Shown here piece after piece: positions 15,166 through 38,722 of a stretch of DNA of 64,000 bases. The DNA is taken from the NCBI GenBank assembly GCA_030704615.1, contig CM060732.1:18724001-18788000 (forward strand), written 5' to 3'. The first letter of the stretch is position 1. Every line of letters starts with the position of its first letter. The notes below the pieces were generated by a model. The model ran no database searches and was not told the DNA's origin. It worked only from the letters and a program-made list of their open reading frames with translations. Origin of the DNA: Takakia lepidozioides. Its lineage: Eukaryota > Plantae > Bryophyta. A program made the position numbers and the translations under genes.

Positions 15166-15171
15166 TCCACC

Positions 15172-16888
15172 ACCAGCTAACTTGCAGAATTCAACATGGA
15201 AATTTAGGGCCGATTCTAATAAGAGGGAAAAACAGGGTGAAATGTGTTGAAGAAGGTGCCCTCATTGCCTGATTTTACCAATTGTGTCGCTGCTGCTGCG
15301 GCTTCCAGTTGACCATCTACCCATGCAGGTTTCTTGTAGCTATTCTCCCACAAGGAATCATAGGCAATGTTGTGCTTGAAATGTGGCCCTCACCGATGAA
15401 TCTGGACCCACACTCTATCCCTGCTCCTTCAGCTATCCATGCCTCTGCACAAATCATGCATACATCCTTGCCTTGCTGGTAGCAGCTGACAATAACAGCC
15501 TACATTTGTTCTAGGAAACACCCAACTCAACTTCTCACACTAGTTCATATGCTCAATTGCATCTGCTACTCTCTGTAATCCAACAGACATTCACCTTTTT
15601 GCCACAATTGGGCCACCATTGATTAGGGTCAGAAAAGTATTCATGCCACAGCTTCATGACTGTTTAGGGTTCACTGTCACAAATGAAAGTGTGTTTGTCA
15701 GAATTCTGCCCACCCCAACAGCTCAGTCACTCCCACCCATGTAAGGTACCATGTTGTATCAAGTATAAACCCTGGAAAAGTACATGCAATAGCAGAAACC
15801 AACTCTACACCATAGCACAACTGGCTTGGTACCTCCCATGTGGAGCTTGCCTCCGCCTTCTACCATTTCGCCTCTGCCTTGCAGGTGCATTCAAGTTGGC
15901 AATGGCCAATTCAGCAATTCAAAGGCTCCATCCCACTTCACTGCTGTGCACATCCTGCAAGCATCGCGCTCCACGACACCACATCTTGTTCAGCCATGGT
16001 GTTGAACACTCCCTAAACTTGACCAAATCAGAAAAGTATTCATTCCACACCTTCTCCTCATCTCTTGTACCTGTTTCTGGATACTTTCCTGTTGTCACAT
16101 TGGCAGTATCATGTCAAAGTCACTCCAATCTATCAAAGATTCAGTCAACCAGCTAACTTGCATAATTCAACATGGAAATTTAGGGCCGATTGTGATAAGG
16201 GGGAAAAACAGGCTGAAATGTGTTGAAGAAGGTGCCCTCATCGCCTGATTTTACCAATTGTGCCGCTGCTGCTGCGGCTTCCAGTTGACCATCTACCCAT
16301 GCAGGTTTCTTGTACCAATCCTTCCACAAGGAATCATAGGCAATGTTGTGCTTGAAATGTGGCCCTCTTGGATGAATCTGGACCCACACTCTATCCCTGC
16401 TCCTTCAGCTATCCATGCCTCTCACAAATCATGCATACATCTTTGCCTTGCTGGTAGCAACTGACAATAACAGCCTACATTTGTTCAAGGAAACACCCAA
16501 CTCAACTTCTCACACTAGTTCCTATGCTCAATTGCATCTGCTACTCTCTATAATCCAACATGCATTCACCTTTTTCCCACAATTGGGCCACCATTGATTA
16601 GGGTCAGAAAAGTATTCATGCCACAGCTTCATGACTGTTTAGGGTTCACTGTCACAAATGAAAGTGTGTTTGTCAGAATTCTGCCCACCCCAACAGCTCA
16701 GTCACTCCCACCCATGGAAGGTACCATGCTGTATCAAGTCTAAACCCTGGAAAAGTACATGCAATAGCAGAAACCAACTCTACACCATAGCACAACTGGC
16801 TTGGTACCTCCCATGTGGAGCTTGCCTCCGCCTTCTACCATTTCGCCTCTGCCTTGCAGGTGCATTCAAGTTGGCAATGGCCAATTCA
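15172..16888. repeat. ~740-bp direct duplication (15172-15913 / 16150-16888) covering the 3' end of the transposase gene
   Basis: Both copies run from CCAGCTAACTTGCA.AATTCAACATGG to AATGGCCAATTCA, and duplicated ORFs appear in the track (MCRCCCGFQL..., MKVCLSEFCPP...). Confidence 0.92.
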
Positions 16889-19800
16889 TCTGCCTCACTC
16901 AAAGGAACACAAACAGCAAGCTCAGTCATGATGTTATGAGGAATTTCAGGAGGCACCATGCCTACATAAATGTCTCCCTCACCCAGTGCCACTTCTGTAA
17001 TATCGTGAACCACTCGTCGGGATCGAGGGTCCTTGTGAAGGACCACCTTCCAGTTCCCTCGTGAACTTTTTTCATCCGAGAAAAAAACTTGCTCCACCTG
17101 ACTAGGGAATGTCCAGGGCTGCTCCATCCCAGGCAACATGCGACTGAAGTCAACCAAGAGAAAGCCATAATCATCTCGTTTCATGGTGGCATTCCGGCCC
17201 ACCATGTGTGACCTCACCCATGTACACAAGAACAGAATTGGGTGAAGAATTCCGTAATCCAGTTGAATTATTTCTCTTACAACACCCACATATTCCAATT
17301 GGGATAACACTCGTCTGGACATACCTGCTCTGTTTTCGCTTTCCTGATGGAATACTTGAGCAACTCCAGAATCAAATGTCACCCTGTCTCTGGCGCCAGT
17401 CCCATCACTTATTGCTCGAAAGTGATTGCCGTAAGCATACATGGACTTGAAGCCCAATGACTGTACTGCTGGTGGTATACATAAATGGCATATGTCCAAA
17501 TCATAGGACTCACCTGAACTCACCTTGCGTTGGACAGCACCTTCAATCCATTCATGGAATGGAGCCAGTAAGCGCATATCTGTTGGGTATGGAATTTCTC
17601 CATTGTGGTGGTCTTGGTCTTGTCCACAAAGGTATGCTGTTCTGAACTCAGTGCGGGATGCTTCTATGAGTGCCATCTCCTCTTCATAGGCCCTGTCCAA
17701 ATGAGAATTGCAAATTAGGATTACAGCTTATACCATTGGCAGAAATGAAACACACAGGATATGATAAGCAACATACTTACTCAAGGAATGGTTTCATGCA
17801 ATCTGTGTTGTGCAAAATATACTCGTGTGCACTGTCTCGTTCTTGAATGGTGAGGACTCGTACAGTTCCCAATCCTTCAACCACCTCCCCACTAACTGAG
17901 TCTTCTTCATTGGAGTCCCACACCCTTCGGCTTGTAGCATGAAATTCAGCCATATACTCAGTTAGAAACCCTAGGGCCTCATCCAAAGCATACCCTTCCG
18001 CCATGCTCCCTTCAGGTCGGCTCATATTCCTTACATAGCCTTTTAATGTCTTCATATACCGTTCCATAGGATACATCCAACGGCTAGACACGGGACCACA
18101 CACCTCCAATTCGTCCACAAGGTGTACAAGCAAGTGAGTCATGATATCAAAAAATGACGGAGGGAATTCTTTCTCCAGCAGACACATAGTGATTGCAACA
18201 TCTTCTTTTAAGGCCGGTACCTCAGCTGGATTAATGATCTTTGCACACACTTTTTGGAAGACTCGAGAAAGCCTCATAATTGCCATCCGTGGACCCTTTC
18301 CCAATACCCCTCGAATGCAAAGAGGTAAAATCTGCTGCATCATTACATGGTAGTCATGGGTTTTCATTGTAGACAGTTTATTGTCAGCCACATGTTTCTG
18401 GAATGTGGCAGCATAACCTGTGGGGGCCTTTACTGCAGCCAATGTTTCCAAAAACAGCACCTTCTCATCTTCAGTAAGAACATATGGGGCCAAAGGCTTG
18501 ACCAACTTGTTCGGGTGAGAGGGATGGGGTCTCAACCACAAGTGTTCACGAATGACATTGAGTTCCATATCCTTCCTAGATGTGGCTGTGTCCTTCTCCC
18601 CAAGAATGGTTCTCAGCACATTCTCACACAAATTTTTTTCACAATGCATCACATCCAGTGTGTATCGGATGAGTAAGTCTTTCCAGTATGGCAATTGGTT
18701 CAAAACAGTGACCCGTTTCATGCCATGTTCCTTTGAAGGGTCCAGTTTTCCCCCCTCAGCCCCTCCCATTGCGAGATACAACTCTCTGGTTGTAGCCCGG
18801 TCAAATTGCTCACTTGCAGTGACCACCATAGGAGCTGCTCTATGTTCCACATGTCCATTAAAGTGGGACGAGTTATTCCTATAGGGATGAATAGCAGGCA
18901 AGTATCTCCTATGACCAAGATACAAAACTTTTTTGCATGCCTTGGAGTACCTGGAATCAACATTAGGGCCGCAAGCTGGGCAGGCCTTGTATCCCCCGTG
19001 TGCGCATCCTGCTAGCAACCCATAAGCTGGAAAGTCGTGGATTGACCACATCAAGATGGCCCTCATGCGAAATGACTGTTGCCCCACTAGGCTACTTCCA
19101 TCCAATGCCTCCACACCAACTTCCCACAACAATTTCAGCTCATCCACAAGGGGCTGCAGATAAACATCTGCATTGTCATTTCCCACAGATTGTGGTCCAG
19201 GAATCAATAAAGCCAACATCGTGAAAAATGGCTTAGTACACAGCCATGGTGGAAGATTATAGTTTACCAACATGACAGGCCAAGTTGACCATTTGTTTGA
19301 TTTATCACTGTAAGGATTGACACCATCCCATGCGAGACCCAATCGCAGATTTCTGGGGTCCGCTGCAAACTCAGGCCATTTTTGGTCAATGTGGGCCCAA
19401 GCCTTGCTGTCTGCTGGGTGCCTAACCAAGCCATCCAAACTTCGATTCTTAAAGTGCCATGACAATAACTCTGAGATGGATTTGGCTTTATACATTCGAA
19501 GCAGCCTTGGAATGATAGGGAAATGTCGAAGGACCTTACGAGGTACTGGTGTCTTCGTACCCACCACATAACGACATGCCTGACATTTTGGACAAACCTC
19601 CAAATTTTGAAGCTCCCTTCTGAACAACACACAACCTTTCGGACATGCATGTATACTCTCGTAATGAAGCCCGAGTTCCATTATGAGTTGTTTTGCCTCA
19701 TAGTGGGACTTTGGCAGGCAATTGTCTGCTGGCAACAGTTGTCTTCCTAACAATGTAAGGAGTTCATCGACAAAGGTGTTTGACACACCATGGGTTTGAC

Positions 19801-20590
19801 AAGCATTTAACAGCAGTAAGGTAGCAGACAATCGAGAGGAAGAACTCCCTACATACAAAGCCCTGGATGCCTCCTGCTCAAAACGTAAGGCACTCGCTGC
19901 ACCACGATCACCATCGCTCTTCAGTCCACCATCAGTCTGCTCTGGCACTCCATCTGTGTCCCATTGGCCCTGTGTTCCATCTCCCGGTTCCTCATGTGCA
20001 TCACCAGTTTGCACCCCATTATCTGTAGTTGCGAATGTCTCCCGGAGCATTCTAAGCATGTCAAGATTACGATCCAAGGTATCAGGACCACCTGCAGGGC
20101 TGGTTTCCGTTCTAAACCCCTCATGTTCGTCTCCAGAGTTTTCCTGCTTATAAGCATATCAGTCCACATGTCAATCCACAATAAGATGGGGAGTTTAGGG
20201 TTGGAAATGGTGGATGTGGAACGTGCCATAATACAGGCACGTGGCAATAGGAAAACGGGCATGTACAATACTCTACACCTTACAACAATCCCGCTACCAG
20301 GAATTTGAACTGTTTCTTATAATTTCAAAGTATGCATCAGGGTTAAGGGAAGAGAATCCACAGATATGCACCGGGAGTTCTCGCAAGTTAGGATCTCGCA
20401 AGTTCAAAAGCAGATGACGCTTAGCCCGGCCAATGGTTTGCCAGTTCCCACCATGACAGGCATTGCATGGACATAGAATTTTCCGAAGACCCAGTCTTCT
20501 TGCTCGCGCTTCCTCTAGTTTCCACAATCTGTCATCGTCATGTTCTGCTTGTGTCCGCCTTTGCAATCGATGGGCAGTAGGAGGGATCAT
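16780..20590 (-). CDS. CACTA TnpD-like transposase, spliced: N-terminal CPC..C..H domain ~20590-20370, core 20077-17780, C-terminal exon ~17695-16780
   Basis: 766-aa open core with IHACPKGC.LF, CPKC...RY, HPADSKAW..ID, PRNLRLGLAWDGVNP, STWPV...YNLPPWLC, DFPA, LDVMHCEKN, KTHDYH, FPPSFFDIMTHLLVHL and RWMYPMERYMKTLKGYVRN..RPEGSMAE. The final exon has YVGVVREIIQLDY...LFLCTW and FPSQVEQVFF. A GT-AG intron spans ~17780-17696. Confidence 0.93.
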
Positions 20591-20619
20591 CTTGGCGACT
20601 GAGTGAGACTCGTCAGGAA

Positions 20620-23600
20620 ATGGAGACAGACATAGAGTGTCCAGAAGTTACACCAGGGCGCAAGCCTACAGCGAGGGAGGTAGAACGAGCAAAGCGTCAA
20701 GCGGAGAACAAGGCATTCTTCGCACGACTGAAGATCTACGACATTGCAAAGAGGTCCGAACTTGCGTTTTTTCATATGCCCTACCTAGCCCTAGCCATGA
20801 AACCGCATTAAAAGCTCCAAACCTGCAGAGAGGATATGTTAGGGTTTTGCTGCTGCTGACATTGTCTTTCTTCTTCTTCTTTGCAGCGTCGAAGCGAGAT
20901 TGAGTCGCCCTAAACGCCTCGTTGAGGAAATCCTCAAACACACAGGTCCTCCTCGCCGAAGTCACAGAGTTCAACTCCTGCACTCTGCAATGTCACAACG
21001 GGAGAAAGAGGTAGAGCAAGAGGAGGAAGCGCAGGTGGTAGCGGAGTCAGACACAGAGGAGGCACGAGAGCAAGAATTGCAGCGAGACCAAGATTATGCC
21101 GCACATGAAGACTTGAATGAGACCAGCTCGGAGTCAGAGATGGAAACGATGAAAGAAGCCCCAACAAAGAGAAAGCGCGCAAAGCACCCTGCAAACTCCC
21201 CAACCCATCAGCAGGTTTGCGATCTGCACCAAAGTTCCGAGTTTCAAACACTATATAACTTGTCCCAGTATAATTTAGGGTTCTGAGACCTAACAAGCTG
21301 ATTGATATCTTTACGGAGCTGGTAGTACCTCGCCCACAATTCTCTGTTGGTTTCCAAATTGCAGCACTCTTTATAGAGGGCTCGTCTCTCAGCTATCTTG
21401 AGTTTAATCTCATTGGTCCACCAATTAACAGCTCTAGCACAGACAATTAGTTTCATCCCAATGATCTTGTCAACCACGGAGGAAACGAAACTCTCCCAAG
21501 AGTCCCCTGCTCTTTCGACCGTTATCAGAGCGAGACTGAAGTTCTTGGAGCGATTGCATCGAGAGGGAGAGCCTCTTGCAAGGCCTGGACATACTCAACC
21601 TTGACCTCCTCATTATGAAGTTTTTCTATGCGCCACTTCCGAATCGAATGTTTCACATATCTCTTGGTGTTGGGAAAACACCTTTTGATCTCATTCCAAA
21701 CCAGGAACTGGTCAGAGGTAGCAATATCAGTTCTGTCGATCAACACATTCGCACACTGGGGGAACAAATTTTTGTCCATTATGATATAATCCACAATGGA
21801 GCGTTCCCCAGTTTGGGATTTCTCACGAGTCCACTGCACTTGGTCACCTCTTGTCCTGATATTCAAGGTGAAAAGCTGAAGATCTTCTAGACAGTTAATT
21901 AACTGTCTGCCATTAGAATGAGGGGCTCACTCCATTAGTAGGACTTACCGTGTTATAAACATTAGTTCAGGCTTTCCAGATTCCTTTTAGAAAGCCCTTC
22001 ACACGTTCATCAGTTTTGTTGTATGTGGGCTACCAAGCAATGAGACCCCAACAGGGCCCACCGCTTTAGACTCAGCCTTGAGATATTGATAGTTGGTGAA
22101 CAGAGGTGCAGGGACTATGTTCTTGATGGTCCTGAAGAGGGTCGCTCTCTGATGAGAATACCCCAGACTTGTATCACAAAATGGACATTGTCTTCAGGCC
22201 ACCCACACCAGTGAGCATCGACAATCTCCCTTTCCTCTCTGCATCTGTTTATTGTTCAAAGGTAGACTCCCCATCCGGAGGTTAAATTTTCAGTCTAGTG
22301 CCAAGGGTAGGTCTGCCCTTCAGATCATCCTCAAAGTCCTCACCCATGTCACAAACTGGAAACGAGTTCAGGGAAGTTTATGCCTAACATTGTTTTGTTC
22401 GGACATTCTTCATGCTTTTGACATGGCCTTAGACACTTCAGCCTCCACGTCAGATTCATCTAGCAGGGTAGGGTCGTTGGTATGAGGCATGCGATTCAGC
22501 TGACTGTACCATAGGTCTGACTGACAGGGTCTTCTTGCATAGGCCTTTGGGCTTGGCTTACCCACGTGGTTTGCCATCCCTAGTAGTATGGTCGTATTGT
22601 TTCACATGTTTCTGTTGAGCAATGTGTGCAGAGTTCAGTCAAAAAAAGGAAGGGAATTGCAGGGAAGGATGCGAACGAGCATAAGTCTCTTACTCCAGCA
22701 AAGTGTGCACCAACTATTGCGCCAACTGCTGTGATGAGTGGCGCGGTTGTTTCCCCTTACGAAAAACCAGCCCCGCCCACTCCACAGACTGACGTTCCAG
22801 CTCCCTTGTATCCACCAGTATCGGCTCCTCCCTCGTATCCGCTTATGTACCCACAGTATCCTGCCATGTCAGGGTATAATCTGCATGGGCACATGCCGTA
22901 TCCTCACTATCAACCTCCAAACAATGATTCTCAGTGCCAGAATTACAATTCTTTTGCTCCACCTGCAGGCGCTCCAATGCATGATCCTAGTCAAGGTGGG
23001 TATTCCATTTACCACCATTATGGAATGCATCCCCATAGTATGTATCCTCCTCGGCCTATGTACAACCAACCTACTTCCTCCCTCTATCCTACCAGCCCTG
23101 CAAGACCACACCAGGGGCAGGTCCAGTATGGTGGCCACCAACCTTCAGGATCCAACTACAGTGGAGTACAACTGCCGGCACCTTCGAGCTTCACTGCACC
23201 GCGGCCACCTCTTTATCCAACATCTCCAGGTACACCTAATACCCTGAAAGGGAAAGGCATTCTGAAACAGACCGAGGATGCATTTGCTCCGCATCATCCT
23301 GTGGGGTGGGAGACAGCAGTCCAGCCCCAACAGAGTGAAGGTGGTAACATGCATGGTACTGCTGAAACCTTGCAGGATTCCAGCCTTAGTCCTGGGGGGA
23401 CATCAGGTGTGACTCCTATAGAACGCAAAAATGCTTTAAGGAGGGAAAGAAGGGCACTTGCAAAAGATCTGAGAGACCAGGCTGCTCAGAATGTGGCTGT
23501 AGGGAGGAGGAAATTTTTCATTTCTTGTGATGAACTTGGAAACCCTGAAGGTCCTGCTCGGAACCAGTGGATGACAGCTCTGCGAGGGCAGTGTCAACGT

Positions 23601-26479
23601 TTGTTGGACTGGTCATTGTATGCTCAGGATCAACCATTACACTTAATTGAAAAGATCATGGAGATCCTGGCTTCAGATTGGGAATACGGACCTCCTGGTC
23701 TTAACATAAAGGCTATTACAAAAACAATTTGCGGGCAGCTCAAGTACCAACGAAATAAGCTGTTCAAAAATTACTATAGTGTGGGGCTGCCCAAACCCCA
23801 TCATGTGCCAGACAAGACATGGGCACAACTAGTTGTTAGTTGGGGTTCCACTGATTTCAAGAAATTTCAGGCAAATGGTGTCAAGGCGCGGGGATGTGTG
23901 AAGAATACATCTCGATCAGGTCGCAGTGGAATCAGCGGTGTTGTAGCACGACTGGTATACTTCTCTTACAACATAGGAAGTTCCCACATTGTTTTGCATT
24001 GACAAACTTTATGTGTTGGGTTTTTTTGGCTGGAGCTCAGAGTCTATTCCTATCACCATTGAATTAGTACACATTGCTACTACTTGGGGGCCTTCTCAGA
24101 GTTGGGCGCCAGCAAGAAACTAAGCACTCTTATTGAGGGGGAGTCATTGACGCTATCCTAGATAATTCTTTACTGTTGGCAGTGTGCTATGCTAGTCATT
24201 AACACTTGCAAGTTTGTTGCAATCACAGGAGAAGGAGACTGGACGTACACCAAGTTTGCAGGAGATCGCCGGTAGCGCCAGGAGTGACAAAGGCTACGGC
24301 TCGGGGTGTACAGGCAGTGCAGCCACAACGGTATATAAACTCAGTACCAATTCTGGTGTGAATTACATATTCGTGATTTCCATGCCATTGCTAGTTGCCG
24401 TTTGGTTCTGTTTTCTTACTAGTTCATCAGTCAGTGTAGTGAATTGTTACTTTGGAGGTGTTCTATGTGATGGGGCAGGGAATTGGTTCACTAGCAGCTC
24501 GCCTCGATGCTATGGAAAACAAACAAGTGCAGATGGAAGCCAGCTCCAAGGCAGCTTTGGAAGCAGTCCAAGGCCAACTGGAGGCAGCAGCTGCATTCAA
24601 CATTGCGCTCGCAGCTAAACTTGGCATGAATGTGCCAGATTCGGAACCTACAGGTCCACCATGCACCACCTTTGCGCCACACACAACAAATGAGACTATT
24701 TCTCATGTTATGGGCTCACCACTCAACCTGTTCAAGGCAGTTTCTTCACCGCCACCAAAGCCAAACACAATAGGCTCATTGTTTGGGCTTTCAGAAATGG
24801 AGGGGGATGATGACATGGAGGAGGTGAACTCAATCCATCCCCCCATATTGTTGAGGCAACTGCAAAGTGTTCATCCGTTTTGTTGTCCCCTACACCAGTA
24901 GCACTTCCGGCATATGTACTACCCTCTCAATATGCCTGTGAGGTCTCCATGAATTTGCAGAGTGCCCCACAGAAAGGTGTGTCTTTTGTACATGATAATC
25001 ATGTACAAGTTGTTGGTAATTGCCCTTCGGCAACTGAGAGGCAGAAACACATCCTTATACTTGACTTGAATGGATTGTTATGTGAGAGCAGACTACGAAC
25101 AAGGGAACACCTAGAGCCCACTGTCACCTCCAGACCTGGGTGTCAGGAGTTTCTGGACCGATGCCTTCAGATTTTTGATGTAGGTGTATGGTCTTCCATG
25201 TCATTGAGTAATGTCCTTCCAGTTGTGAAAGCATTGTTTCCTGGGAAGCAACCAAAGATGGTGCTTCACCAAGACTATTGTGACCAACCTGTGGGAATGG
25301 TGGACCCTCTCAATCCTTCTAAAACTGTCATGTACAAGAACTTATGTAAGTTTTGGAAGGACTACAGCCATTACAATCCAACCAATACTTTGCTGGTGGA
25401 CGATTCCCCACTCACTTGCTTACCCAACCCTGCAAATAATTGCATCTTCCCGTATCCATGGAAGTTGAGGGATCAGCCAAACTGCAAGAGGCTTATGAAA
25501 GAATTACTGCCTTGGTTAGAGGGTGTATCCAAGGCTGCACACATCCCTGAGTATGTGTCAGGGCACCCATACAGATATGGGCAGCCCAACTACTTGTTCA
25601 ATACTGCAGCCATGGGTAGTGGATCACAACAATCTGCAAAGGCATCCGAACCAGGGCTTCCTGCTGCCAGAGTTCCAACGACTTTGCCTCCCGATGCAAC
25701 AACAAAGCATAATCAAAGAAAGGTGAGAGCAAAAGATTCAATGCTTGGGCGCGTGGGTGGATTTGTATTGTTAATGCTACTTCACAATGTGTGTCATTCG
25801 TGCTATTCTCATTTTTTGATCATGTGTCATTCAATATGCAGATGGTGAAACCAGTGAAGCGTTCAATGGGCAGGGAAAGCACAATATGTGCTATCAATCA
25901 GACTACAACCACAGTGGATGTAACTGAACCATGGGGTGACCAACAAAATCCGCACAGTGTAAGTACTTCCTTTGTCCTCTTTTGTTTCCTTGTCTGATGC
26001 TGGATCAATACACCCCCTATGTATCGTTGTGTAGCTGCAAGATTGACAACCTACAAAGGTAGTTTTGTGACATGAGTATAGAGACAGGCAAATGCAATTC
26101 AGAATTGGAAGTACTGCAATAGGTAGGGTTGGGGTGTTTGCTGGAAGAACGAGGATGCATTTTGCAGGAGTGCCAAGCTGTCAGTCTCTGTTCTCCAGGG
26201 TTCATTTCTGATATAGGAATCTGGTTTTTGTTGCAGTTTCAGATCGGCGACAAGGTGTTATTGTTTGATCCTTGTGCACCAAAAAGAAGGGCAAGTGTGG
26301 GATATATTGCTGGATTTCCGAAAGCAAATGTGCCAGACAACTATTACCGTATCCATGTGAAATCGGTCATGATTTCAGAGGTTGTGTTGCCGTACCCGGA
26401 CTACTCTGTTACCCCTAATCATACCACATTGGGTGACACGCAGGGAAGTGCCACCTTATGGTCTGAAAAGTTTATTTAA
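20620..26479 (+). CDS. CACTA accessory (TnpA-like) multi-exon gene including an FCP1/NIF-type HAD phosphatase-like domain
   Basis: Probable exons ~20620-20752, 20887-21213, 22631-23954, 24229-24330, 24479-24823, 24961-25722, 25842-25958 and 26236-26479, with GT-AG boundaries read by eye. A Pro/Tyr-rich region precedes a Ptta/En-Spm-like segment (PHHVPDKTWAQLVVSW...KARGCVKNTSRSGRSG). HAD motifs ILILDLNGLL, RPGCQEFL, VGVWSS, KNL..FW and TLLVDDSP. Confidence 0.72.
21244..21960 (-). mobile_element. Non-LTR retrotransposon fragment (APE endonuclease C-terminus and linker) in an intron of the CACTA accessory gene
   Basis: WTREKSQTGERSIVDYIIMD...TSDQFLVW followed by WWTNEIKLKIAERRALYK, typical LINE endonuclease/linker motifs. 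Confidence 0.75.
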
Positions 26480-28259
26480 CACGCGTGATATTGAAGATGC
26501 TACAAGTTTAGTTTAGTTTTCTTTATGGATTGAAGGTTGCTGAGACAGGTGAACAAAACTGCTCTTCTGACATGAACAATATTTTTTGAATTGATGCTCT
26601 TGCTATTCTCATGTATGATCACAAGATCCCCTTGTTCAAAGGCAACTTCATTTTCCCACATCAAGCCAAATTAAACTTGTGTAGACATGAATGTGGTATT
26701 TTGCTGGTTGTTTGCTATATTTAATATTAATAACATTACTACTGGTCAATGTGGTTCATAATACAATTATTATCCATGTTTTAAATAAGCTTTTGTTTAA
26801 ATGAAACAAAACAAATCAAAATTCTAAAACAATAATATATTACATATTAAATCAAGCAGCCAATGGCTTTTGGGGTGCTATCCCATTTATTATATAATAA
26901 TAATAATATGACTATTCATTTTGGCATTTGTCAACAAATAATAATTGTTTACTTTTCATCCAATAGGAACAAAACAGTGGATGTGACAGTATTCACACTA
27001 GTGTCATTGCGATCACACCACGACTTGAACCTGGTGTTAAATCTGTGTGAGAGAGTCCGTAAGAAGAGCCCTTAATATCTATTATTTATTTAATAATTCT
27101 GATGGACTCTATTACGTGGCATTCCCTTTGACATACATGTGGCAAACATGGTGGCGCCGAGGTGTAATAAGTACCGTAGAAAGACCATTAAGAGTACTTA
27201 GTCAAAATAGTAGTTGAACTAACCAGTCAAAACGACCGTCAAAATATCCGTCAAAAGAGCCACCTAAGCCTACTGCCACATCAGGTGCAAGTTTGGTGTG
27301 AGATGGTTTTTTTCACAGGACCAAGAAAGTTCACATGTGGTGCAAAGGACTAGGTTAACCTAACACCAAGGGGGGGTGCGAACTTGCGCTTTTTTCACAC
27401 CAAAATGTGTGAGAAGAGCCGTTAAAAAAACCAGTTTCTGTACTAGTGATGGTGACACCTGGAGTTGTCTTGTTAGACAACCAGGATGGCATTTTTCTCT
27501 TTGAGTGGACCGGCAGGCAAGAAGTACCAGCCACTGCGGGTCTTGTTGGACTCGGGAGCTCAGCCACTGATGTTGGGCAGAGCTGCTATGGCAGGTTTGG
27601 GCCTCATGGAGGCGGATATGGAGCCTTGTCCTTTCCAGATACAGACATCTCTGGGAGGATCAGAGCAGGCTCGGGGCATGACACGGCGTGAGTTGGCCAT
27701 TGGACTACAACCAGATCATCCTGTAGATGGCTCAGTGATGCGAGCCAAGGCCATTGTGACAGACGCGGTCTCTTACGATGTCCTTGTTGGTGGGGCAGTG
27801 TTATATCCCATGGGCTTCACCCTGGACTTTTGGGAGGAGTCAGCATCCTACAGGCCTGGATGGCAGTCAGGGGATAGTCGTCGTGCACAGCTCCCTGTGA
27901 CATTCATTGGGGGTATTGTGGTTGCCCAGCGGGGCAAGATGCCAACACTAGCCGCCTTTACAGCTGCAGTTAGTTGGCCTGGAGAGTTGCTGGAAGGCAA
28001 TGCCCATGCAGAGGATGAGCCACCTCCAGCAGAGCAGGATGACATGCATGGTACGGCGGAGTTGCTTGTCATGGTTGCTCACACTCCATTATGGGGTACG
28101 AGCAAGGATTTGCAGCAGGCTGCTGATGGACGGGTACAACAAGCCTGAGTAGAGGCCTTCGTACCGTCAGGAGAAGAGGAGAGTGCGGTGATTGCACCAG
28201 GACCACCTCAGTTGTCGCCATTGGACACCACACCTCTTGTGTGGCAGTGCCCGGATGAA

Positions 28260-29230
28260 GGCATATGCCTTCTGGACTTGTTTGGCGGGATCAGCACTGG
28301 ATTGGCTGCAATACTGCAGGCAGGTGTACGAGTTCGACGTTACCTGTATGTGGAGAGGGATGAGACTGCACGACGCGTCTCACTATGCCATGTTGCTCAG
28401 TTGGTACAACAGTACCCTGATTTGTTGCCAGTGTCTGCAGTTCGTGGATACCAACAAGCATTGCCAGCAGACATTTCGTTGCTGGGGGCGCAGGATTTGG
28501 AGCAGGTTGGCTCCATTGATCTGGTAGTGGCAGGTTGGCCCTGCCAAGGGCATTCATCAGCCGGGCATGACAATGGATTGCGAGACTCGAGGACGGGTCT
28601 GTTTTGGGAGATGGTGCGGATTTTGCGCCACTTGCAGCTTCATCAAGCTGTATCTCCAGCATACATCTTGGAGAATGTGCCACTGATGGGTGATTCTCGG
28701 GCCAGGGTCATGGCCAGTGTGCATCAAGTCCGGTCGTGGCTTGGGTCAGCAGTGTTGCTGGATGCAGCTGCAGTGGGGTCACGGGCTCATCATCCACGGC
28801 TATGGTGGACTAACTTGATGCCACCCGCACTGCTCAAGCGTGCATTTGATGGGGTGCAGCGGCCAGCACACCTCACAGTGGATAGCATTTTGAACACAGG
28901 GAGACAGTCTCAACGTATGAGACACGATGATCGTTCGCCTTTGGCAGTGGTCAACAGGGTGGGTCAACCACGAGCAGCATTACCTACACTGCTCAGTTTC
29001 CCAGGATCCCATGCTTTTCGGGATGGTGGACCTGGCCTCTTGTGGGATAGCCAGTTGCAACAATTAGTGGAGCCCAATGCTGACGAGCGCGAGCGGGCGA
29101 TGGGTTTTACCACAGGTACCACGGCGGTGCCATCTCTTTCTGAGGCATCACGTCATCAGGTGTTGGGGCAAGCAATGGATCTCAATTGCTTGACCTGGAT
29201 TATCAGCTTGGCTATGGCTGAGCAGCGCAG
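28260..29230 (+). CDS. DNMT3-like C5 cytosine DNA methyltransferase domain within element B pol (uninterrupted reading frame)
   Basis: Motifs in canonical I-X order: LDLFGGIS (I), YVERD (II), AGWPCQGHS (IV, catalytic PC), YILENV (VI), AHHPRLWWTN (VIII), ERERAMGF (IX), RHQVLGQAM (X). Confidence 0.95.
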
Positions 29231-32200
29231 AGTACGGAGTACACTTCCCTTCATGGTCTCCCTGCCTACCGAGACGGTACAGACAACGAGTGGGGGCGAG
29301 CAGGTGAGGACCACGAGGTGCAGGCCGCATCCATGGCACACGTGGGAGGTGCTTGAGGTTCAGAAGGAGTTGGCAGCGAAGGCGGCGGTGATGGATCAGG
29401 TTGGGGATTTTTCTCGGATTGAGGAGGTCCTCAAGGGTGGGATAATGGGGCAGGATGAGACATTGTCACTGACAGAGGAGGCAGTGGTCACTGCTCAAGA
29501 GGTTGCAGCATAGCAATCACGGGACGCGTCTTCTACCTCTAAGCTTGCTGGACTCAAGGTTGCAGTCACGGAGGACAACTGGGAGCCTGATGTTGGACCT
29601 ATAGTCACCGGAGGAGAGAGACGACATATACGGCAGTTCTTGAGGGCTTACAGGAACTGCTTTGCTTTCAGTTTGAAGGACTTAGGAGCACTGAAGGGTC
29701 AAGAGATTCGCATTGAATTGACTACTGACACGCCAATCTTTCGGAGACCCTATAGATACAGTGACATGGAGAGGTCCTTGATTCAGATGAGAACTCAGGA
29801 CCTTTGGGAGGCTGGTTTGGTGGAGCTATCTGGGGGAGAGTGATGCCAGCCACAGTGATGCCTGCCAAGAAGGATGTCTATGGCAATTGGACGGAGAGAC
29901 GTATGTGCGGTGATTACCGGCCTATAAATTGTCAGACCAAGTCCGATAGGTATGCCATGCCGACACCAGAGGAGATCTTTGATGCCATTGGGCATGCCAA
30001 GGTCTTTAGCACGTTGGATTTACGATCCGGATATCACCAGTTGCCGATCAAGGAGGCGGATAAGCAAAAGACGGCATTCTGGGGGATCAATGAGCACGGG
30101 AATGATTGCCTATACCAGTGGCGGTTCTTACCATTTGGGCTTAAAAATGCTCTTGCTGAGTTTCAAAGAGTCATGGACAGGATTCTAGCAGGGGTGGAGT
30201 TTGCTCGGTGCTACATAGATGACATCATCATCTTTAGTGCTACGGTGGAGGAGCATGAGGGGGTATTTGAGCGCTTGAGGGCACACGGATTGAAGTTACA
30301 TCCGGGAAAGTGCAAGTTTTTCCACAACCAGATTGAGTATCTGGGTCACATGATATATCCTGGAGGATTGGGGGTACAGCAGACTAAGGTAGAGTCCATT
30401 GCACAGGTTCCACGCCCAACGGACGTGAGCCGAGTTCCAGCTTTCATGGGGTTAGCAAACTATTATAGACGGTTTGTTAAGGGACTTAGTGCCATTGCAA
30501 AGGCTCTAACCAAGCTGACCAAGGTGGACCAGGAGTGGCAGTGGGAAGATGAGCAAGAACAAGCTTTTCAAGAGCTCAAGGCGAGGTTGACCTCGGCGCC
30601 CATCTTGAGACGGCTTATTAGGGGGCGTCCTTTTCAGCTGCATACAGATTGGAGCATGCTGGGGCTTGGAGCGGTGCTCATACAGGTGGATGATGAGGGA
30701 AGAGAGTTCGTAGTGGCTTATGCTAGCCGCTCGAACAACGTTGCAGAGTCTAAGTATAGCTCATATGAGGGAGAATGCTTAGCTGTAGTGTGGGCCGTGG
30801 CACACTTCAGGTGCTATCTATACAACAATCTCTTCACCCTTGTCACGGATCACCAACCACTCAAATGGTTGATGGAGTCAGACAAGCTTATGGGGAAGCT
30901 TGCACGGTGGGCACTCATCCTTCAAGAATATGACTTTCAGGTTGTGCATCGACCGGGTTTGGTCAATCGCAATGCAGATGGGTTGAGTCGCAATCCATGC
31001 ACGAGCCAGCAGGATGACACTGGAGCTCGGTGGCATGGTGAGACGGACGAGGAGATGGTGCCCGGATGGCATGCATCTGCATTTCTGTGTATCTTGGCAG
31101 CGGAAGGCCAGGTTGGACCTGCAACAGGGATGACTGTAGATCAAGTGTCTGAGGACCCTGAGGCCAGCAATGAGCAAGGTGGCGCCAAAGATATACATGA
31201 GGATTCAGTTGTGTTGGACTACCTCCGCACTAGAGACACTGCAGCCACTGTGACTGCCAAGGAGAGGGATCGGATCCTACAACGAGCCAAGAGGTTCAAG
31301 TGGGAGGGGACACACCTGCTCCGAGTGTGGGAGGATGGTCGAGTGAGGATTGTGCCTCACCCAACACAGCGGGCACGGTTAGTGCGGCATGCCCATGAGG
31401 AGTTGGGGCATTTTGGGGTGCGACGCACTCATAGTCTACTGCAAGGGCAGTATTGGTGGCGTGGTATGCACATAGAGGTGCAACAACTTGTGGCTAGGTG
31501 CATGGTGTGTGACAGGGTGCGTGCTTCATTCAACGCCCCTACTCCACAATTGCACCCACTTCCGATCATGGGATTGGGCTACAAGTGAAGTCTTGACTTC
31601 GCAGGGCCGTTGCCACTGACCATGTACCACAACAAGTACGTGTTGGTGATAGTGGAGCACTTCTCCAAGTTGATTGAGTTGGTTCCATTGCCTGATAAGG
31701 CTAGTGAGGGAGCTGCGTATGCATTCTTGGATTGTGTGCTTAGCCGATTCAGTGCTCCAGCTGAGGTACTCACGGACCAAGGGAGAGAGTTCTTGGGGGA
31801 GTTTCAGGCTTTGTGTGACAAGGCCTTGATAGACCACCGCACCACTTCTCGGGATCATCCTGAGGCCGATGGCTTGGCAGAGAGAGTTGTTCAGATAGTA
31901 AAGAGGGGTTTGCGCAAGTATGGCTTGCAGAAGGGACACCTAGGAGATTGGGACCTTCAGTTACCCTGGTTAGCCATGGGCTACAGGTTCAGCAAGCAAA
32001 CATCACTTGCCTCCTTCTCACCATATTTTCTTCTTTTTGGCCGAGAGCCGGATTTGCCTACATCCATTCGCAGGGAAGCTGCTACAGTTCTTAACCTTGA
32101 CGATCCGGACGTGTGGGCACGTGCATGTGAGCAGCGTGCAGAGTTGTTCAAGAAAGTCATGCCCATGGCTTTCGAGAACCTTGCCATTGCACAACACCGT

Positions 32201-32491
32201 GATACGTTGAGGTATGCTACCATATGTGGTGGGGGCTATCGTCCTGGGGTTCGGAGATTCAACCCTGGTGACTATGTCTATCTGCAGCAGACTACTCCTA
32301 CGACCTTGGATGTGACTGCATGACGTGTTATTTTGAGGGTTCGAGAGGTCTTGCCCTCAGGCGTCTTGGTCTTGGAGGGTCGGGATGGCATAACTTGGAA
32401 GAACCATGTGCGTAATTGTGCGCCATGTCACCTTCCGAATGTCGATGGCAGGATTGACCCAAACCTGGCAGTGGTATCTGCAAGTTTGAGG

Positions 32492-32626
32492 TGCATGTTG
32501 TGTGGGTCTGCTAAAGGGGCAGCCACCATGCTGGTGTGTGATCGATGCTCTAGAGGTTGGCATATGGGATGCTTGACTCCACCTCTTGAGATGGTTCCGG
32601 ATGGGGATTGGTTATGTCCACAATGC
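32492..32626 (+). CDS. PHD finger at the C-terminus of element B integrase
   Basis: CMLC-x11-CDRC-x4-HMGCLTPPL..VPDGDWLCPQC, a Cys4-His-Cys3 pattern with the conserved Trp. Confidence 0.95.
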
Positions 32627-32895
32627 ATTGGATAGTGGGAGTGGATACAACCATGGGAGGCTAACAAGAAATGCAAGGCCAAGCTACTAGGAGACCTTGA
32701 ACACACGAGATCCTGGCTCAAGTTCACAGATTGCAAGACGGCGACTAACGATGGGGCTACTCTTGTACCCGGCCTCTTGATCTACAGAGTTTGAGTACAA
32801 CAGGGCCAGTGATAGAGGACTTAGTACGGCTGTGGCTATTACATCTTGTAGCTATCTGGAGTTAGAGGGACCTATCCACCAGCTAGGGGGGCGAT

Positions 32896-33412
32896 TGTGG
32901 TAGACTACTTTATTGTGCATCTATGTGTGGTGTGGTTTGGACAGCGATGTAGTTGTGTAGCGATATGTATGCGCACGACAGCTGTCAAGTTAAATAAACA
33001 CAGTGTGAAACTAACTAGAATAAAACTAGTTATTTGTATTTAACACTTGGATTTAGTTCAAGTGGTGTCAAGTTTGAGCTTGACACCTGAACCATCTTAT
33101 CTTCACGAGAGCGTCAGTCGCGCAGCTCATCTCTCTCGAGTTGAGCCTGCGCGACCGAGCTCCTTCATGCTTAGAATCTGAGTGTGCTTATGTAGGGGTA
33201 TAGGTTGTTGTGGGGTGGAGTCCCCATAGCTTGGGGTGCCCCTAGCTCGACTATTATCTTAAAGAGTGATGTTGAGGGATTTCATGTTTCTTGGGTGAAC
33301 AGTGTGTTCTTTAGCTATTTTATCTATTGTGGCAGACTACTTTATTGTGCATCTATGTGTGGTGTGGTTTGGACGGCGATGTAGTTGTGTAGCGATATGT
33401 ATGCGCACGACA
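32896..33412 (+). repeat. Element B right end: B1 (32896-32980), GC, A2 (32983-33326), B2 (33328-33412)
   Basis: B1 and B2 both read TGTGG.AGACTACTTTATTGTGCATC...GCGCACGACA. A2 matches 9162-9513. Confidence 0.95.
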
Positions 33413-33416
33413 CCAT

Positions 33417-36400
33417 TGATGAGTGAGGGGAGTTCAGTGACATCACCTGGACCTCCTGAATTAGCTCCTGTGGACACGGTGCCCATTACCTGGCAACCAC
33501 CTGACTCAGGGATTTGTTTGCTAGACCTGTTTGGAGGCATGAACACTGGGCTTGCAAGAGTGTTGCAAGCAGGGTTAAAGTACGCAAGTACGTGTATGTG
33601 GAGAAGGATGAGATAGCTCGGCGTATTTCTATACGCCACATCGCCTTGCTCACACACCGGTATCCTGAGTTGTTGTCTCTCTCAGCAATTCAAGGGTATC
33701 AAAAGGCCTTGCCAGCAGACATTACCTTGCTTGGGGCGGATGATTTGGACCGGCATGGTGCCATTGACTTGGTGATAGCCGGATGGCCTTGTCAATGACA
33801 CTCTCCCGCAGGTCATGGGAATGGTTTGCATGATGCACGATCGCATTTGTTTTGGGAGATGTTGCGAGTGTTGCGGGACTTGAAGACGAGGCAAGTGCAA
33901 CCTCTAGGCTATATCTTGGAGAATGTTCCTCTTATGGGGGATTCTCGGGCCAAGGTTATGGCCAGTGTGCATCAGGTGCGGTCTTGGATTGGATCGGCAG
34001 TGCTATTGGATGCAGCAGCGGTGGGATCACACGCGCATCGACCTCGATCGTGGTGGACCAATCTTGCACCACCAGAGCTACTCAAGAGAGCATACGATTC
34101 CATTCAACGACCACCCAATCTCACGGTTGAGGGCATTTTGGACCAAGTGAGACAACCACAGAGGGTGTGACATGATGACCGTTTACCTCTAGCAGTGGTC
34201 AATCGAGTGGGGCAGCCACGTGCGGCCTTGCCTACGCTCATGAGCTTTCCCTCGTCTCATGCTTTTCGAGACAATGGTCCTGGATTGATTTGGGACTGTG
34301 TGCTACATCAATTTTTGGAGCCCAATGCGGATGAGCGAGAGCGGGCAATGGGTTTTAACACGGTCACTACAGATGTGTCAGCTCTGTCAGAGGTATCACG
34401 CCGCCAAGTGTTGGGTCAAGCAATGGATCTAAATTGCTTGACATGGATAATTGGCTTGTGCATGGCCGAGCAACGGAGATTGCAAGCATTGGTGGCTACT
34501 TCTGCACTCCCATTGGATAGTGCATCCTCCCTGCCAACCGGGACGGTTGAGGCAGTGAGTGGGGGCGAGCATAGGATCGTGGGTTGCAAACACCCATGGC
34601 AGATGTGGGATGAGATGCGCAAAGAGAGAGTCATTGGATCTCTCAAGCAGCAGTATGAGGAGTGGGGAGAGCCATAGACTGAGGATCAGTTGGAGGCCAA
34701 TGTGGCCAAGGTTTTTGAAGAGATTGAGAATGTTTCTTGCTCAGAGGATGTTCTCAAGGTGGCTATGGCGAAGCAAGTGGAGGCTACGCCATAGTTAGAT
34801 TGGGCGGACAAGGCCCAAGAGGTTGCTATCTAGCAACCAAATGATTCGTCTCCTACCTCCAAGCCCGGTGTACCTAAGGTTGCAGTCACTGAGGACAATT
34901 GGGAACCAGATGTTGGACCTACAGTCACCGGAGGAGAGAGACAGAGGATCCAACGATTTCTAAGGGCTTATAAGAATTGCTTTGCCTTCGGATTGAAGGA
35001 TTTGGGGAGTTTGAAGGGTCAGGAGATTCGTATTGATTTGGCAAGTGACATGCCAATCTTTCGAAGGCCCTACCGGTATAGTGACATGGAGAGGTCATTG
35101 ATCCAGTCACGGACTATGAAGTTGTTCGAAGCTGGATTGGTCTAGTTGTCAGGCGGGGAGTATGCCTTGGCAACGGTGATGCCAGCTAAGAAGGATATCT
35201 ATGGCAATTGGACAGAAAGAAGGATGTGTGGGGACTATCGTCCTGTGAATCGTCAGACTAAGTCCGATAGATATGCCATGCCAACTCCAGAGAAGATCTT
35301 TGATGCCATTGGGCATGCAAAGGTGTTTAACACATTGGACTTGCAATCCGGTTACCACCAGTTGCCAATCAAAGAGGCTGACAAGCAAAAGACGGCATTT
35401 GGGGGATTGACCAACATGAGAAGGATTGTTTGTACCAATGGCGATTCTTACTGTTTGGGTTGAAGAATGCTCCTGCAGAGTTTTAGAGAGTCATGGATAG
35501 GATTCTCGCGGGGCTAGACTTTGCCCGATGCTACATTGATGACATCATTGTCTTTAGTGCTACGGTTGAGGAGCATGAGAGACACCTTCAGGTGGTGTTT
35601 GAGTGCTTGAGAGCGCATGGGTTGAAACTGCACCCCGGAAAGTGCAAGTTCTTCCACAATTAGATTGAGTATCTGGACCACATGATATACCCTGGAGGAT
35701 TGGGTGTTCAACAGACAAAGGTGGAGGCCATTGCATGCATTCCACGCCCCATGGATGTGAGCAGAGTTCGTGCTTTCATGGGATTGGCAAACTACTATCG
35801 ACGGTTTGTCAAGGGATTTAGCAGCGTTGCAAAGGCTCTTACCAAGTTGACCAAGGTGGGTTAGGAGTGGCAGTGGGAGGAGGAGTAGGAGAAAGCCTTT
35901 GAGGAACTCAAGGCTCGATTGACTTCTGCACCTATTCTGAGGCGGCCTTTCCAGCTACATACGGATTGGAGTATGTTGGGGATTGGAGCAGTGCTCACAC
36001 AGGTGGATGATGAGGGAAGAGAGTTCATAGTGGCATATGCTAGCCGCTCGAACAATGATGCCGAGACGAAGTATAGTTCCTATGAAGGGGAGTGTCTAAC
36101 TGCAGTATGGGCAGTGACACATTTCAGATGCTACCTCTATGACAATCTCTTCACCCTTGTCACGGATCACCAACCATTGAAGTGGTTGATGGAGTCAGAC
36201 AAGCTTACAGGGAAGCTTGCACGGTGGGCACTTATGCTTCAAGAGTACGACTTCCAAGTGGTGCATCGAGCCGGTATTGTCAATCGGGATGCAGATGGAT
36301 TGAGTCGTAATCCATGCACGAGCGAGCATGATGATACTGGAGCTCGGTGGCATGATGAGACGGATGAGGAGATGGTGCCAGGATGGCATGCATCGGCCTT

Positions 36401-37960
36401 TTTGTGTATTCTAGCAATGGGAGCTCAAGCTGGTCAATCCCATGTGATTGATCATGTAGATAGTGTGCATGACGATCCAGAGACTAGTGAGGAGTTTGGT
36501 GGTGCTAAGGATGTGCATGAAGATGCAACAGTATTGGCATACCTTCGTACCGGAGAGGCAGCAGCTAGTGTGACTGTTAAGGAGAGAGATCGGGTCCTAC
36601 AACGAGCCAAGAGGTTCAAGTGGGAGGAGACTCACCTACTCCGGGTATGGGAGGATGGACGAGTGAGGATTGTGCCTCATCCAACACAACGAGCACGATT
36701 GGTACGCCATGCCCATGAGGAGTTGGGACATTTTGGGATGCGGCGCACTCATAGTTTGCTGCAAGGGCAGTATTGGTGGCGATGCATACACACGGATGTG
36801 CAACAGCTAGTGGCAAGGTGCATGGTGTGTGATAGAGTGCGGGCTTCTTTCAACGCCCCTACTTCACAATTACATCTTTTACCCATTATGGGTTTGGGCT
36901 ATCGTTGGAGTCTTGACTTCACAGGCCCATTGTCACTGACAATTCGCCATAACAAGTATGTGCTGGTGATGGTGAAACACTTCTCCAAATGGATTGAACT
37001 GGTGGCATTGCCTGACAAGGCAAGTGAGGGGGCTGCGTATGCATTCTTAGATCGAGTGCTTAGCCATTTTGGTGCTCTAGCCGAGGTACTCACGGACCAG
37101 GGGAAAGAGTTCTTGGGAGAGTTTCAGGCTTTGTGTGAGCAAGCCTTGATATATCACCGCACTACTTCTCGGGATCATCCCGAGGCTGATGGCTTGGCGG
37201 AGAGAGTTGTTCAGACAATCAAGAGAGGTTTGCGTAAGTACGGTTTGCAGAAGGGACACCTAGGAGATTGAGACCTTCAATTACATTGGCTAGCTATGGG
37301 CTATAGGTTCAACAAACAAGCTTCACTTGCCTCCTTCTCACCTTACTTTCTTCTCTTCGGCCGAGAGCCGGATTTGTCTGCATCTATTCGCAGGGAGGCT
37401 GCAATAGTTCTTAACCTTAATGATCCGAATGTGTGGACACAAGCATGTGCCCAACGGGCAGAGTTGTTCAAGAGAGTCATGCCTATGACTTTTGAGAACC
37501 TTGCTATTGCCCAACACCGAGACATATTGAGGTACGCCACTATACGTGGAGGGGGATATCAGCCAAGTGTTCGGCGTTTCCACCCTAAGGACTATGTGTA
37601 TCTGCAGCAGACAGCACCTACGACCTTGGATGTCACAGCAGGACGTGTGATTCTAAGGGTGAGGGAGGTGTTGCCTTCAGGAGTGTTGATTCTGGAGGGT
37701 CAAGATGGCATGGTATGGAAGGACCATGTGCGCAATTGTGCGCCATGTCACCTTCCACATGTGGATGGGATGATAGATCCCAACCTTGCAGTAGTACCTG
37801 CAAGGTTGCGCTGCATGCTATGTGGGCATGCTGGTGGCGCCGCAACCATGTTGGTGTGAGACAAATGCTCAAGGGGATGACATATGGGATGTTTGACACC
37901 GTCACTTGACGAGGTTCCTATCGGAGAATGGTTGTGTCCACGATGCCTTGGACAAAGGTA
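33417..37960 (+). pseudogene. Element A pol 3' part: DNA methyltransferase (~33509-34470), RT, RNase H, integrase, PHD (37812-37946); multiple stops and frameshifts
   Basis: LDLFGGMN, YVEKD, AGWPCQ, YILENV, AHRPRSWWTN, ERERAMGF, RRQVLGQAM. Also YIDD, LHTDWS, WSLDF/LTDQG/DGLAER and CMLC...WLCPRC. Collinear with element B. Confidence 0.95.
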
Positions 37961-38203
37961 ATGGGCATGACAATGGTGAGGCAGACAAGTGATCGGGGCT
38001 TCAATGCCATGGATACTCAACTGAAGATCATGGATTGCATGAAGGCGACTAACGAAGGGGCTACGTTTGCACCCGACCTCTTAATCTATCGACCTCAGGT
38101 GTTGGGACTTGTGCGATTGAAGACCAAGCGACGATCTTATTGGGGTGGATACTTGCAAGCTATCCGGTGTTAGAGGGACCTAATCACTAGCTAGGGGGGC
38201 GAT

Positions 38204-38722
38204 TGTGGCATGGCTTTCTAGGACTATATGCTAGGAAGTGTGGTTGGACAGCGATGTATGTTGTGGCACGATGCTTAGGTGCACGACAGCTGTCATGGTT
38301 TTGTTTGTGATTAGTTAGAAATAGTATTTCTAGCTAATTATGACATTATACATTTATATTTGTATTTTGTTGGCATTGGGACTTCATTTGGTTCCATGTG
38401 CCAAGTGAGGAGGGGAACCTCACTTGGGACGTGGGGAGGTTATCTCCACGTGAGACGTAGGCAGGCTCGTCTTCTTCTAGTCGAGCCTCCCGAGGCCTCT
38501 CTCGCAGCCATAACTCTAGTACTTGAGATGGAGAGTGGGTGAGGTCTGTATGGTGGAGTCTTTTAGCAAAGGTGCCATTGGCTTGACTTATATAACGTGA
38601 TAGAGTGGTTTCTCCTATTTTCACCATTTCCGTATCATTGTGGCGTGGCTTTCTAGGACTATATGCTAGGAAGTGTGGTTGGACAACTATGTATGTTGTG
38701 GCACGTGCTTAGGTGCACGACA
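38204..38722 (+). repeat. Element A right end: B1 (38204-38288), GC, A2 (38291-38637), T, B2 (38639-38722)
   Basis: B1 and B2 both read TGTGGC.TGGCTTTCTAGGACTATATGCTAGG...GTGCACGACA. A2 matches 3762-4109. Confidence 0.95.

Follow-up and report, generated by a model that had tools for sequence, protein, structure and literature searches.

The closest described system to the elements analysed here is KnitGypsy-Dnmt3 of Klebsormidium nitens (de Mendoza et al., 2018; PMC5890265), which bears out the precedent in a charophyte alga cited by an initial annotation of this locus. According to the accessible part of that paper, KnitGypsy-Dnmt3 combines Ty3/gypsy domains with an intronless, non-permuted DNMT3 located after the protease, has DIRS-like repeats in an A-coding-B-A-B arrangement and is under purifying selection; there it is presented as an independent capture in a single alga, its DNMT sharing the ORF of the reverse transcriptase (RT). 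The bryophyte family described below agrees with it in the Ty3/gypsy domains, the intronless DNMT3 after the protease, the repeat arrangement and the purifying selection, and has DNMT and RT in the same frame but a conserved stop between DNMT and RT/RNase H, occurs in land plants, apparently at far higher copy number, and lends itself to a reading by self-priming and circle junctions that does not appear in the accessible KnitGypsy-Dnmt3 text. Retrotransposon-borne cytosine methyltransferases are also found in SymbioDIRS-Dnmt3, which has split repeats, SymbioLINE-Dnmt (PMC5890265) and the EpiLTRs (bioRxiv 10.64898/2026.05.21.726589). As far as the available portions of these sources describe them, those systems have a tyrosine recombinase or LINE backbone, or a DNMT4-related domain with DAM and chromodomain, whereas the bryophyte family has a DDE integrase, 4-bp target duplications and a PHD finger. 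Host plant DNMT3 proteins (PpDNMT3a/b; PMC6453930) share the non-permuted DNMT3-type catalytic domain and occur in non-flowering streptophytes, but are described there as having introns and a C-terminal DUF3444, for which no element protein that was scanned gave a match.

Other elements resemble the family in single traits, as compared by their published descriptions. Tcn1 is self-primed and present in mosses, but is a chromovirus; Phygy and Selgy make 4-bp duplications and have no extra domain in the REXdb portions available (PMC6317226). Phygy uses a tRNA-Trp primer and NCGN sites and Selgy a tRNA-Ala primer (PMC6317226), whereas the bryophyte family has no tRNA primer-binding site after A1, and its AAGG, CATA, TGTG, TACA and CACA duplications do not show the NCGN preference of Phygy. 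Gypsy-7a_cRei of Chlamydomonas has a PHD finger, but ordinary LTRs and, in its figure legend, no methyltransferase (10.1101/2022.06.16.496473). Troyka was rejected as a relative, being described as confined to animals and as having CG ends (PMC12440569). Gypsy-DNMT3 retrotransposons are cited for ‘streptophytes’ in the parts seen of PMC12344493 and bioRxiv 10.64898/2026.05.21.726589, and nothing relevant appears in those of PMC11982613, PMC12885004 and 10.1101/2021.11.30.470311. The literature search, outside which most subscription papers fell, turned up neither land-plant nor chlorophyte members, and no mention of the Marchantia gene identifiers, the conserved stop or the circle reading; the supplementary trees of PMC5890265 and the preprint may include land-plant sequences. 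The kind of element is known from one alga (K. nitens, 2018), and the present family extends it to mosses and liverworts. Poor tractability of the known hosts has kept the role of retrotransposon-borne DNMTs an open question since 2018.

The locus is a stretch of 64,000 nt (the window) from Takakia lepidozioides (Bryophyta; contig CM060732.1). Self-comparison revealed two nested Ty3/gypsy copies, an outer copy A (3762-38722) and an inner copy B (9162-33412), with the following features.

3762..4111, +: repeat A1 of element A (5' end, begins TGTCA), 95% identical to 38291-38639
4111..4120, +: primer-site position of element A, 10 nt complementary to 3942-3951 within A1 (predicted self-priming); 8 of 50 controls equally good, so weak alone
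6538..9161, +: gag and protease of element A, with frameshifts and stops (tblastn with Marchantia P0124 and copy B)
9162..9512, +: repeat A1 of element B; 4-bp duplication at flanks with one mismatch (TCAT/CCAT)
9514..9525, +: primer-site position of element B, 12-nt exact complement of 9317-9328 within A1 (predicted self-priming), without tRNA primer-binding site; 0 of 50 controls equally good
11851..13772, +: gag of element B, one frameshift, resuming beyond the CACTA insertion (Retrotrans_gag E 0.008, below cut-off)
13773..27448, no strand assigned: CACTA DNA transposon within element B, outside the retrotransposon family (CACTA..TAGTG ends, ATG duplication, Transposase_21 E 1.4e-78)
27452..28256, +: aspartic protease (LDSG) and linker of element B; copy-specific stop 28146-28148
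28257..29222, +: DNMT3-type C5 cytosine methyltransferase domain of element B (PF00145, phmmer, profile, AlphaFold model, Foldseek)
29511..29519, +: conserved in-frame TAG and CAR-YYA hexamer of element B (predicted leaky stop)
29520..32635, +: RT, RNase H, integrase and C-terminal PHD finger (32492-32626) of element B, several lesions (RVT_1, RT_RNaseH, rve, PHD E 8.6e-12)
32881..32893, +: polypurine tract of element B, immediately 5' of B1; identical tract in A and Sphagnum-type loci
32894..33412, +: 3' end of element B (B1 32894-32980, palindromic junction CGACA-GC-TGTCA, A2 32983-33324, B2 33326-33412)
33506..34470, +: DNMT domain of element A, one frameshift and two stops
34831..34839, +: conserved TAG CAA CCA of element A
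34840..37960, +: RT, RNase H, integrase and PHD of element A, broken
38202..38722, +: 3' end of element A (B1 38202-38288, A2 38291-38639, B2 38637-38722)
47667..48110, +: third B-type copy, a lone, older B(part)-A-B end without coding region, adjoining a poly-A run

Copy B was inserted after the protease of copy A (8496-8900) and before its DNMT, and the gag of copy B is in turn split by the 13.7-kb CACTA element (13773-27448), which is flanked by an ATG duplication. Divergence between repeats is 1.8-2.3% in B and 3.5-4.6% in A, in agreement with the nesting order, in which A is the older. Both copies are dead. The Ty3/gypsy order of protease, RT, RNase H and integrase is present with a DDE integrase, and the domain search found no chromodomain after the integrase but a PHD finger in its place. 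Protease (27477-28145; Pfam E 0.0013, below the cut-off), DNMT, RT, RNase H, integrase and PHD finger of B share one frame, save for copy-specific lesions. Both copies have tandem repeat arrays with units of ~55-93 nt in their long 5' leaders (4975-5933 in A, 10043-11097 in B). In one sequencing run, 61,646 contigs matched 6 kb of copy B, a figure that gives abundance rather than copy number.

The C5-methyltransferase domain of copy B comprises 322 amino acids (28257-29222) without a stop and matches PF00145 at E 2.7e-13; that of copy A (33506-34470) occupies the same position, as initially annotated, and is 72% identical. The motifs FGG, WPCQ, ENV, AH.PR.WWTN, ERERAMGF and LGQAMD occur in both copies, motifs I-X follow the non-permuted order, and the catalytic Cys, ENV and RxR are intact in most homologues. 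The preference for DNMT3 over DRM, MET1 and CMT was supported by several lines of evidence. DNMT3A ranked first with phmmer (E 3.7e-10), and a profile of 25 sequences returned DNMT3A at 1e-24 and DNMT3B at 4e-22, against 2e-9 for DRM2 and 2.5e-7 for HhaI, with no DNMT1, MET1 or CMT entry among its 58 matches to E 1. An AlphaFold model of the domain (pLDDT 92.4, pTM 0.91) had a DNMT3A-DNA complex as its best Foldseek match (E 6e-20, TM 0.74), and every row listed was DNMT3A, B or C. By sequence and fold, DNMT3A/B are thus nearer to the domain than are DRM, DNMT1/MET1/CMT, DNMT2 or bacterial enzymes, and its description as a DNMT3-type domain in a Ty3/gypsy element is close to certain. At odds with this assignment, ESM Atlas features ranked phage methyltransferase clusters first. 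A viral donor was rejected, IMG/VR having yielded only partial matches (17 loci, 27-49%) and no full-length relative.

The distinction drawn initially between an open domain in B and a disrupted one in A held only in part. Copy A has a frameshift close to the domain start and two in-frame stops, one directly after WPCQ (motif IV). The B domain is free of stops, but the stop at 28146-28148 lies upstream, and the first Arg of motif VIII, kept by 101 of 107 aligned homologues, is replaced by His. Both lesions are private to copy B, since ~99% of depth in the species' sequencing runs differs at these positions. With this His in motif VIII, the copy B enzyme may be catalytically impaired.

The reading of the element is altered by an in-frame TAG between DNMT and RT, at 29511-29513 in B (followed by CAA TCA) and at 34831-34833 in A (followed by CAA CCA). 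The domain had been described as lying in frame between protease and RT; the frame is indeed common, but there is no continuous pol ORF, and the conserved TAG places the DNMT on the Gag side. Among 53 other loci with both flanks, most of them near-copies of one Sphagnum-type family and together representing about five independent lineages, 51 have a stop followed by CAR-YY at this site (36 TAG, 15 TAA); 47 of these read CARYYN (32 TAG, 15 TAA) and four the full CARYYA (all TAG), while the two exceptions are a locus without the stop and one that is frameshifted. CARYYA is the readthrough context of tobacco mosaic virus, as given in the part of PMC4132726 that was available, and the TMV-type arrangement of UAG then CARYYA, in the same frame on both sides, is present in both window copies and 4 of the 53 loci. 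The divergent loci L016, L038, L039 and L053 have the full CARYYA though the residues around the site fail to align. No variant of at least 1% is listed at 29511-29516 (TAG CAA) in four sequencing runs of the species, and neighbouring sites vary. Stops between protease and DNMT are scattered on Gln, Trp and Arg codons, none exceeding 11 of 49 loci, and in 21 of 31 loci gag continues into the protease with no stop between them. Database proteins of 1250-1450 amino acids, including Marchantia Mp4g09160 and Mp8g17980, consist of Gag-protease-DNMT and end at the stop. Since the conserved stop separates it from RT, the DNMT is likely translated together with Gag-protease. We infer from these sequence patterns that RT-integrase would be expressed by readthrough, and the DNMT at Gag-like abundance. 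Such an expression level is not required by all relatives: DNMT and RT share one ORF in P0223-P0225 and in Closterium P0475, and chlorophyte members have the DNMT after RNase H.

In the mechanism that we propose, most ribosomes would terminate at the UAG, and a minority would read through the CAR-YY(A) context into RT-RNase H-integrase-PHD, so that the DNMT would be produced and packaged at Gag-like levels and the domains would be freed by the protease inside the particle. The enzyme would then methylate new element cDNA in the particle, before integration, and the marks could shield the new copy, camouflage it or define the state of its chromatin. By analogy, methylation of new cDNA appears the likeliest role, as suggested by the position of the domain and by the de novo CG methylation that SymbioDIRS-Dnmt3 domains produced in yeast, according to the accessible text of PMC5890265; CG would be the likeliest context, by analogy only. 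Observed/expected CG ratios in the 64-kb window are 0.42-0.68 for the elements and 0.40 for the CACTA transposon, with no element-specific depletion. The element ratio is not below that of CACTA, and the sequence accordingly bears no signature of self-methylation; the number of substitutions between repeat copies (16, 3, 6 and 2 sites) is too small for a methylation context to be read from them. Taken as a whole, the mechanism of an old green-plant Ty3/gypsy lineage with a Gag-protease-DNMT3 first ORF, readthrough, cDNA methylation, self-priming and circle integration seems to us somewhat more probable than its negation. The version in which an ancient, hitherto unrecognised, self-priming Viridiplantae Ty3/gypsy lineage, abundant in bryophytes, packs DNMT3 into the particle in Gag stoichiometry by means of a leaky stop, methylates its cDNA and opens circular cDNA at an internal palindrome with a DDE integrase is offered tentatively and could well be wrong.

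The placement of the DNMT ahead of the stop also predicts an excess of enzyme over RT/integrase, and an active, abundant free enzyme could act in trans, on the chromatin of the host or on copies already integrated, in self-silencing that limits copy number or in target-site marking, rather than on particle cDNA. The PHD chromatin reader on the integrase would suit such an activity, but fusion to Gag-protease favours confinement to the particle. Host effects and self-restraint are discussed in the available text of PMC5890265; the elements, however, have no nuclear targeting domain like the DUF3444 reported for host plant DNMT3 (PMC6453930), and action in trans is improbable, though it survives best among the alternatives to cDNA methylation by readthrough-expressing elements.

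The DNMT would still belong to ORF1 if RT-integrase were produced by splicing, with the TAG as acceptor, or by re-initiation at a nearby ATG. The U-rich Sphagnum-type context, TTT GCR TAG CAA CCC ATG, which is missing the final A of CARYYA and has an ATG two codons on, counts against readthrough in these common loci and would suit either route, and some Marchantia and Sphagnum gene models, which are predictions, splice over the site. Against this, every lineage keeps the in-frame CAR-YY hexamer, which a splice site does not require, the ATG is absent at the site in the window copies and in L016, L038, L039 and L053, and no joint spanning the site occurs in four contig sets, which are contigs of unproven RNA status. 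This route is rated somewhat lower than action in trans, and expression of RT-integrase by readthrough is preferred.

A third possibility is that the domain has been kept for a non-catalytic role, in nucleic-acid binding or particle assembly, or for RNA methylation. The K. nitens Gypsy domain was inactive in yeast, a result its authors termed inconclusive in the accessible text (PMC5890265), motif X reads GQAM or GRCM where DNMT3A has GRSW, and the elements show no CG depletion of their own. Of 107 aligned homologues, however, 102 retain the catalytic Cys and 105 the ENV Glu, and each of the paired motif VIII Arg is retained in 101; catalytic and SAM-binding residues are all kept in >90% of these proteins, which are 35-75% identical, unlike a DNMT3L-type pseudoenzyme. 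A non-catalytic or RNA-directed role therefore has a slight probability, and cDNA methylation remains the preferred function.

Conservation of motifs between the diverged copies had been attributed to selection, and the ratios agree. Between A and B, dN/dS of the DNMT is 0.12 (bootstrap 95% 0.07-0.18; 319 codons; Nei-Gojobori), near the values for protease (0.13) and integrase (0.13), with 0.07 for RT and 0.93 in the linker preceding the stop, which aligns poorly; for the DNMT of two independent locus pairs the values were 0.12 and 0.19, all these ratios being approximate with dS near saturation. From sequence comparison, then, the domain is under purifying selection. Its presence in other family members, the absence of which had been named as refuting, is evident in the best 80 of 194 metagenome matches, where the order gag-PR-DNMT-RT-RH-IN-PHD is kept wherever neighbours are present, deleted copies aside. 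The homologues with a named source belong to Calypogeia, Marchantia, Riccia and Sphagnum (61-74% identity); none from ferns, lycophytes, hornworts or seed plants was named among the matches listed, and annotated proteins under-represent elements.

A profile search extended the family to 649 clusters at E up to 1e-30. Among the best 150 of these, 138 were new, with RT-RH-DNMT(-IN-PHD) in 72, DNMT-IN in 20, DNMT only in 36, and DNMT after gag/protease or before RT in 10. The 20 clusters looked up included Closterium (6), K. nitens (1), Scenedesmus (1) and Haematococcus (2). The DNMT follows the protease in Closterium, where visible, and in K. nitens KFL_013780020 (P0497), a partial record without RT, which reads zinc knuckle-protease-DNMT and is 38% identical over the domain; it follows RNase H in the chlorophytes Scenedesmus and Haematococcus. 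Trees of RT-RH and of DNMT split these two placements alike (SH-aLRT 100 and 99), which shows that the DNMT co-diverged with RT; the label 'no DNMT' given there to the element at the start of L014 is provisional, as that element is truncated ahead of RT. The unrooted DNMT tree grouped the window copies with elements of liverworts and Sphagnum (100/100), and its backbone to K. nitens and Closterium is weak (61/90). The initial annotation had proposed a land-plant instance, and the named liverwort and moss homologues and the host RPN3 gene support this, but a capture in land plants is less probable than descent from an old lineage that land plants share with algae. A single capture of part of a host gene, a nested insertion or an artefact of assembly, which the heavily nested window and its two broken copies might suggest, is refuted by the same position in the mapped neighbours of all 80 loci, in named genomes and in K. 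nitens, by purifying selection and congruent RT-RH and DNMT trees, and by coverage of the region in independent sequencing runs, and has a negligible probability.

A large and diverse set of elements (P0162-P0207, P0370-P0507) has the DNMT placed after RNase H and before the integrase, and many of these elements extend in long tails past the PHD finger. Named members are P0399 (Scenedesmus), P0411/P0505 (Haematococcus) and P0177 (Chromochloris); the set is apparently chlorophyte, and no report of it was found in the papers searched. P0208, which has PHD, PCIF1_WW (adenine methyltransferase-like) and a DNMT of the same family without RT matches, is a possible dual-methyltransferase element.

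The ends of the elements differ from ordinary LTRs. Complete A-coding-B-A-B ends were found in both window copies and in L058, L061 and L071/L076. The ends are TG..CA, and of nine insertions, five have exact 4-bp duplications (duplications include AAGG, CATA, TGTG, TACA and CACA), three have one mismatch and one is offset by 2 nt. With the polypurine tract directly before B1 and A ending in CA, B+A reads as one LTR, and this combination would be the functional unit. No tRNA primer site was found after A1. Instead, the bases that follow A1 complement a site lying 150-180 nt within A, exactly so over 10, 12 and 16 nt in three unrelated A sequences, and the transcript would self-prime through a hairpin between its 5' end and this site, as is known for Tf1/Tcn1 elements in the available portion of PMC6317226. 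The complementarity is absent in L061 and L071, and only 8 of 24 copies had a pairing superior to every one of the 50 controls.

Both window copies have the B1|A2 junction CGACA-GC-TGTCA, as do Sphagnum-type loci and the distant L053. Integrase-type ends would result if both strands were cut, with a stagger, after CA, and the integrase could open circular cDNA at the palindromic B|A junction. A two-LTR circle would give A-coding-B-A-B, and a one-LTR circle, or later B1/B2 recombination, A-coding-B. A single-B end was seen in ten loci, three of them with both ends and duplications (A-coding-B), and the A2|B2 junction of L035/L044 keeps 9 nt of primer-site sequence, as expected of a ligated circle junction. 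These sequence features suggest that one- and two-LTR circles are opened at the palindrome and then integrated. A two-LTR circle, however, has two equal junctions, yet B lies upstream of A1 in 0 of 21 loci, and B1/B2 recombination explains the short form too. Opening of circular cDNA at an internal palindrome is a route otherwise associated with tyrosine-recombinase elements, and a Gypsy integrase may here use circular DNA as a normal substrate. The terminal heptamer of B keeps its CG in 16 of 26 locus ends (14 CACGACA, 2 TACGACA), across lineages, in a count that took in the B ends of 20 loci and of the two window copies, most non-CG forms being deamination products; the integrase site itself thus holds a potential methylation target.

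These elements have consequences for work in bryophytes. LTR finders will miss split-repeat elements, and element copies can confound counts of bryophyte DNMT3 and the interpretation of methylomes. Intact Gag-PR-DNMT ORFs are annotated as hypothetical in Marchantia polymorpha, which is transformable and has methylation mutants, and this makes the question of DNMT function testable.

Several neighbouring features of the window were also identified. The CACTA element carries tnp2 (17777-20158, minus), DUF4216 and a proline-rich ORF (22587-24002). It has also captured an ORF resembling NIF phosphatase (24814-25848; PF03031 E 4.6e-18), and a 742-bp duplication within it (15172-16888) contains PPR-like fragments. 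Judging by motifs, we take 40900-41900 (+) to be a relic of a hAT-like transposase and 42800-44700 (minus) that of an L1-like LINE. Three 3' exons of the host's 26S proteasome gene RPN3, which point to a seed-free land plant and probably to a bryophyte, lie at 487-726, 1387-1710 and 2170-2361 (+); the product is 89-90% identical to those of Marchantia, Riccia, Physcomitrium and Diphasiastrum, 82% to ferns and 80-85% to seed plants, and groups weakly (83/85) with mosses in a tree.
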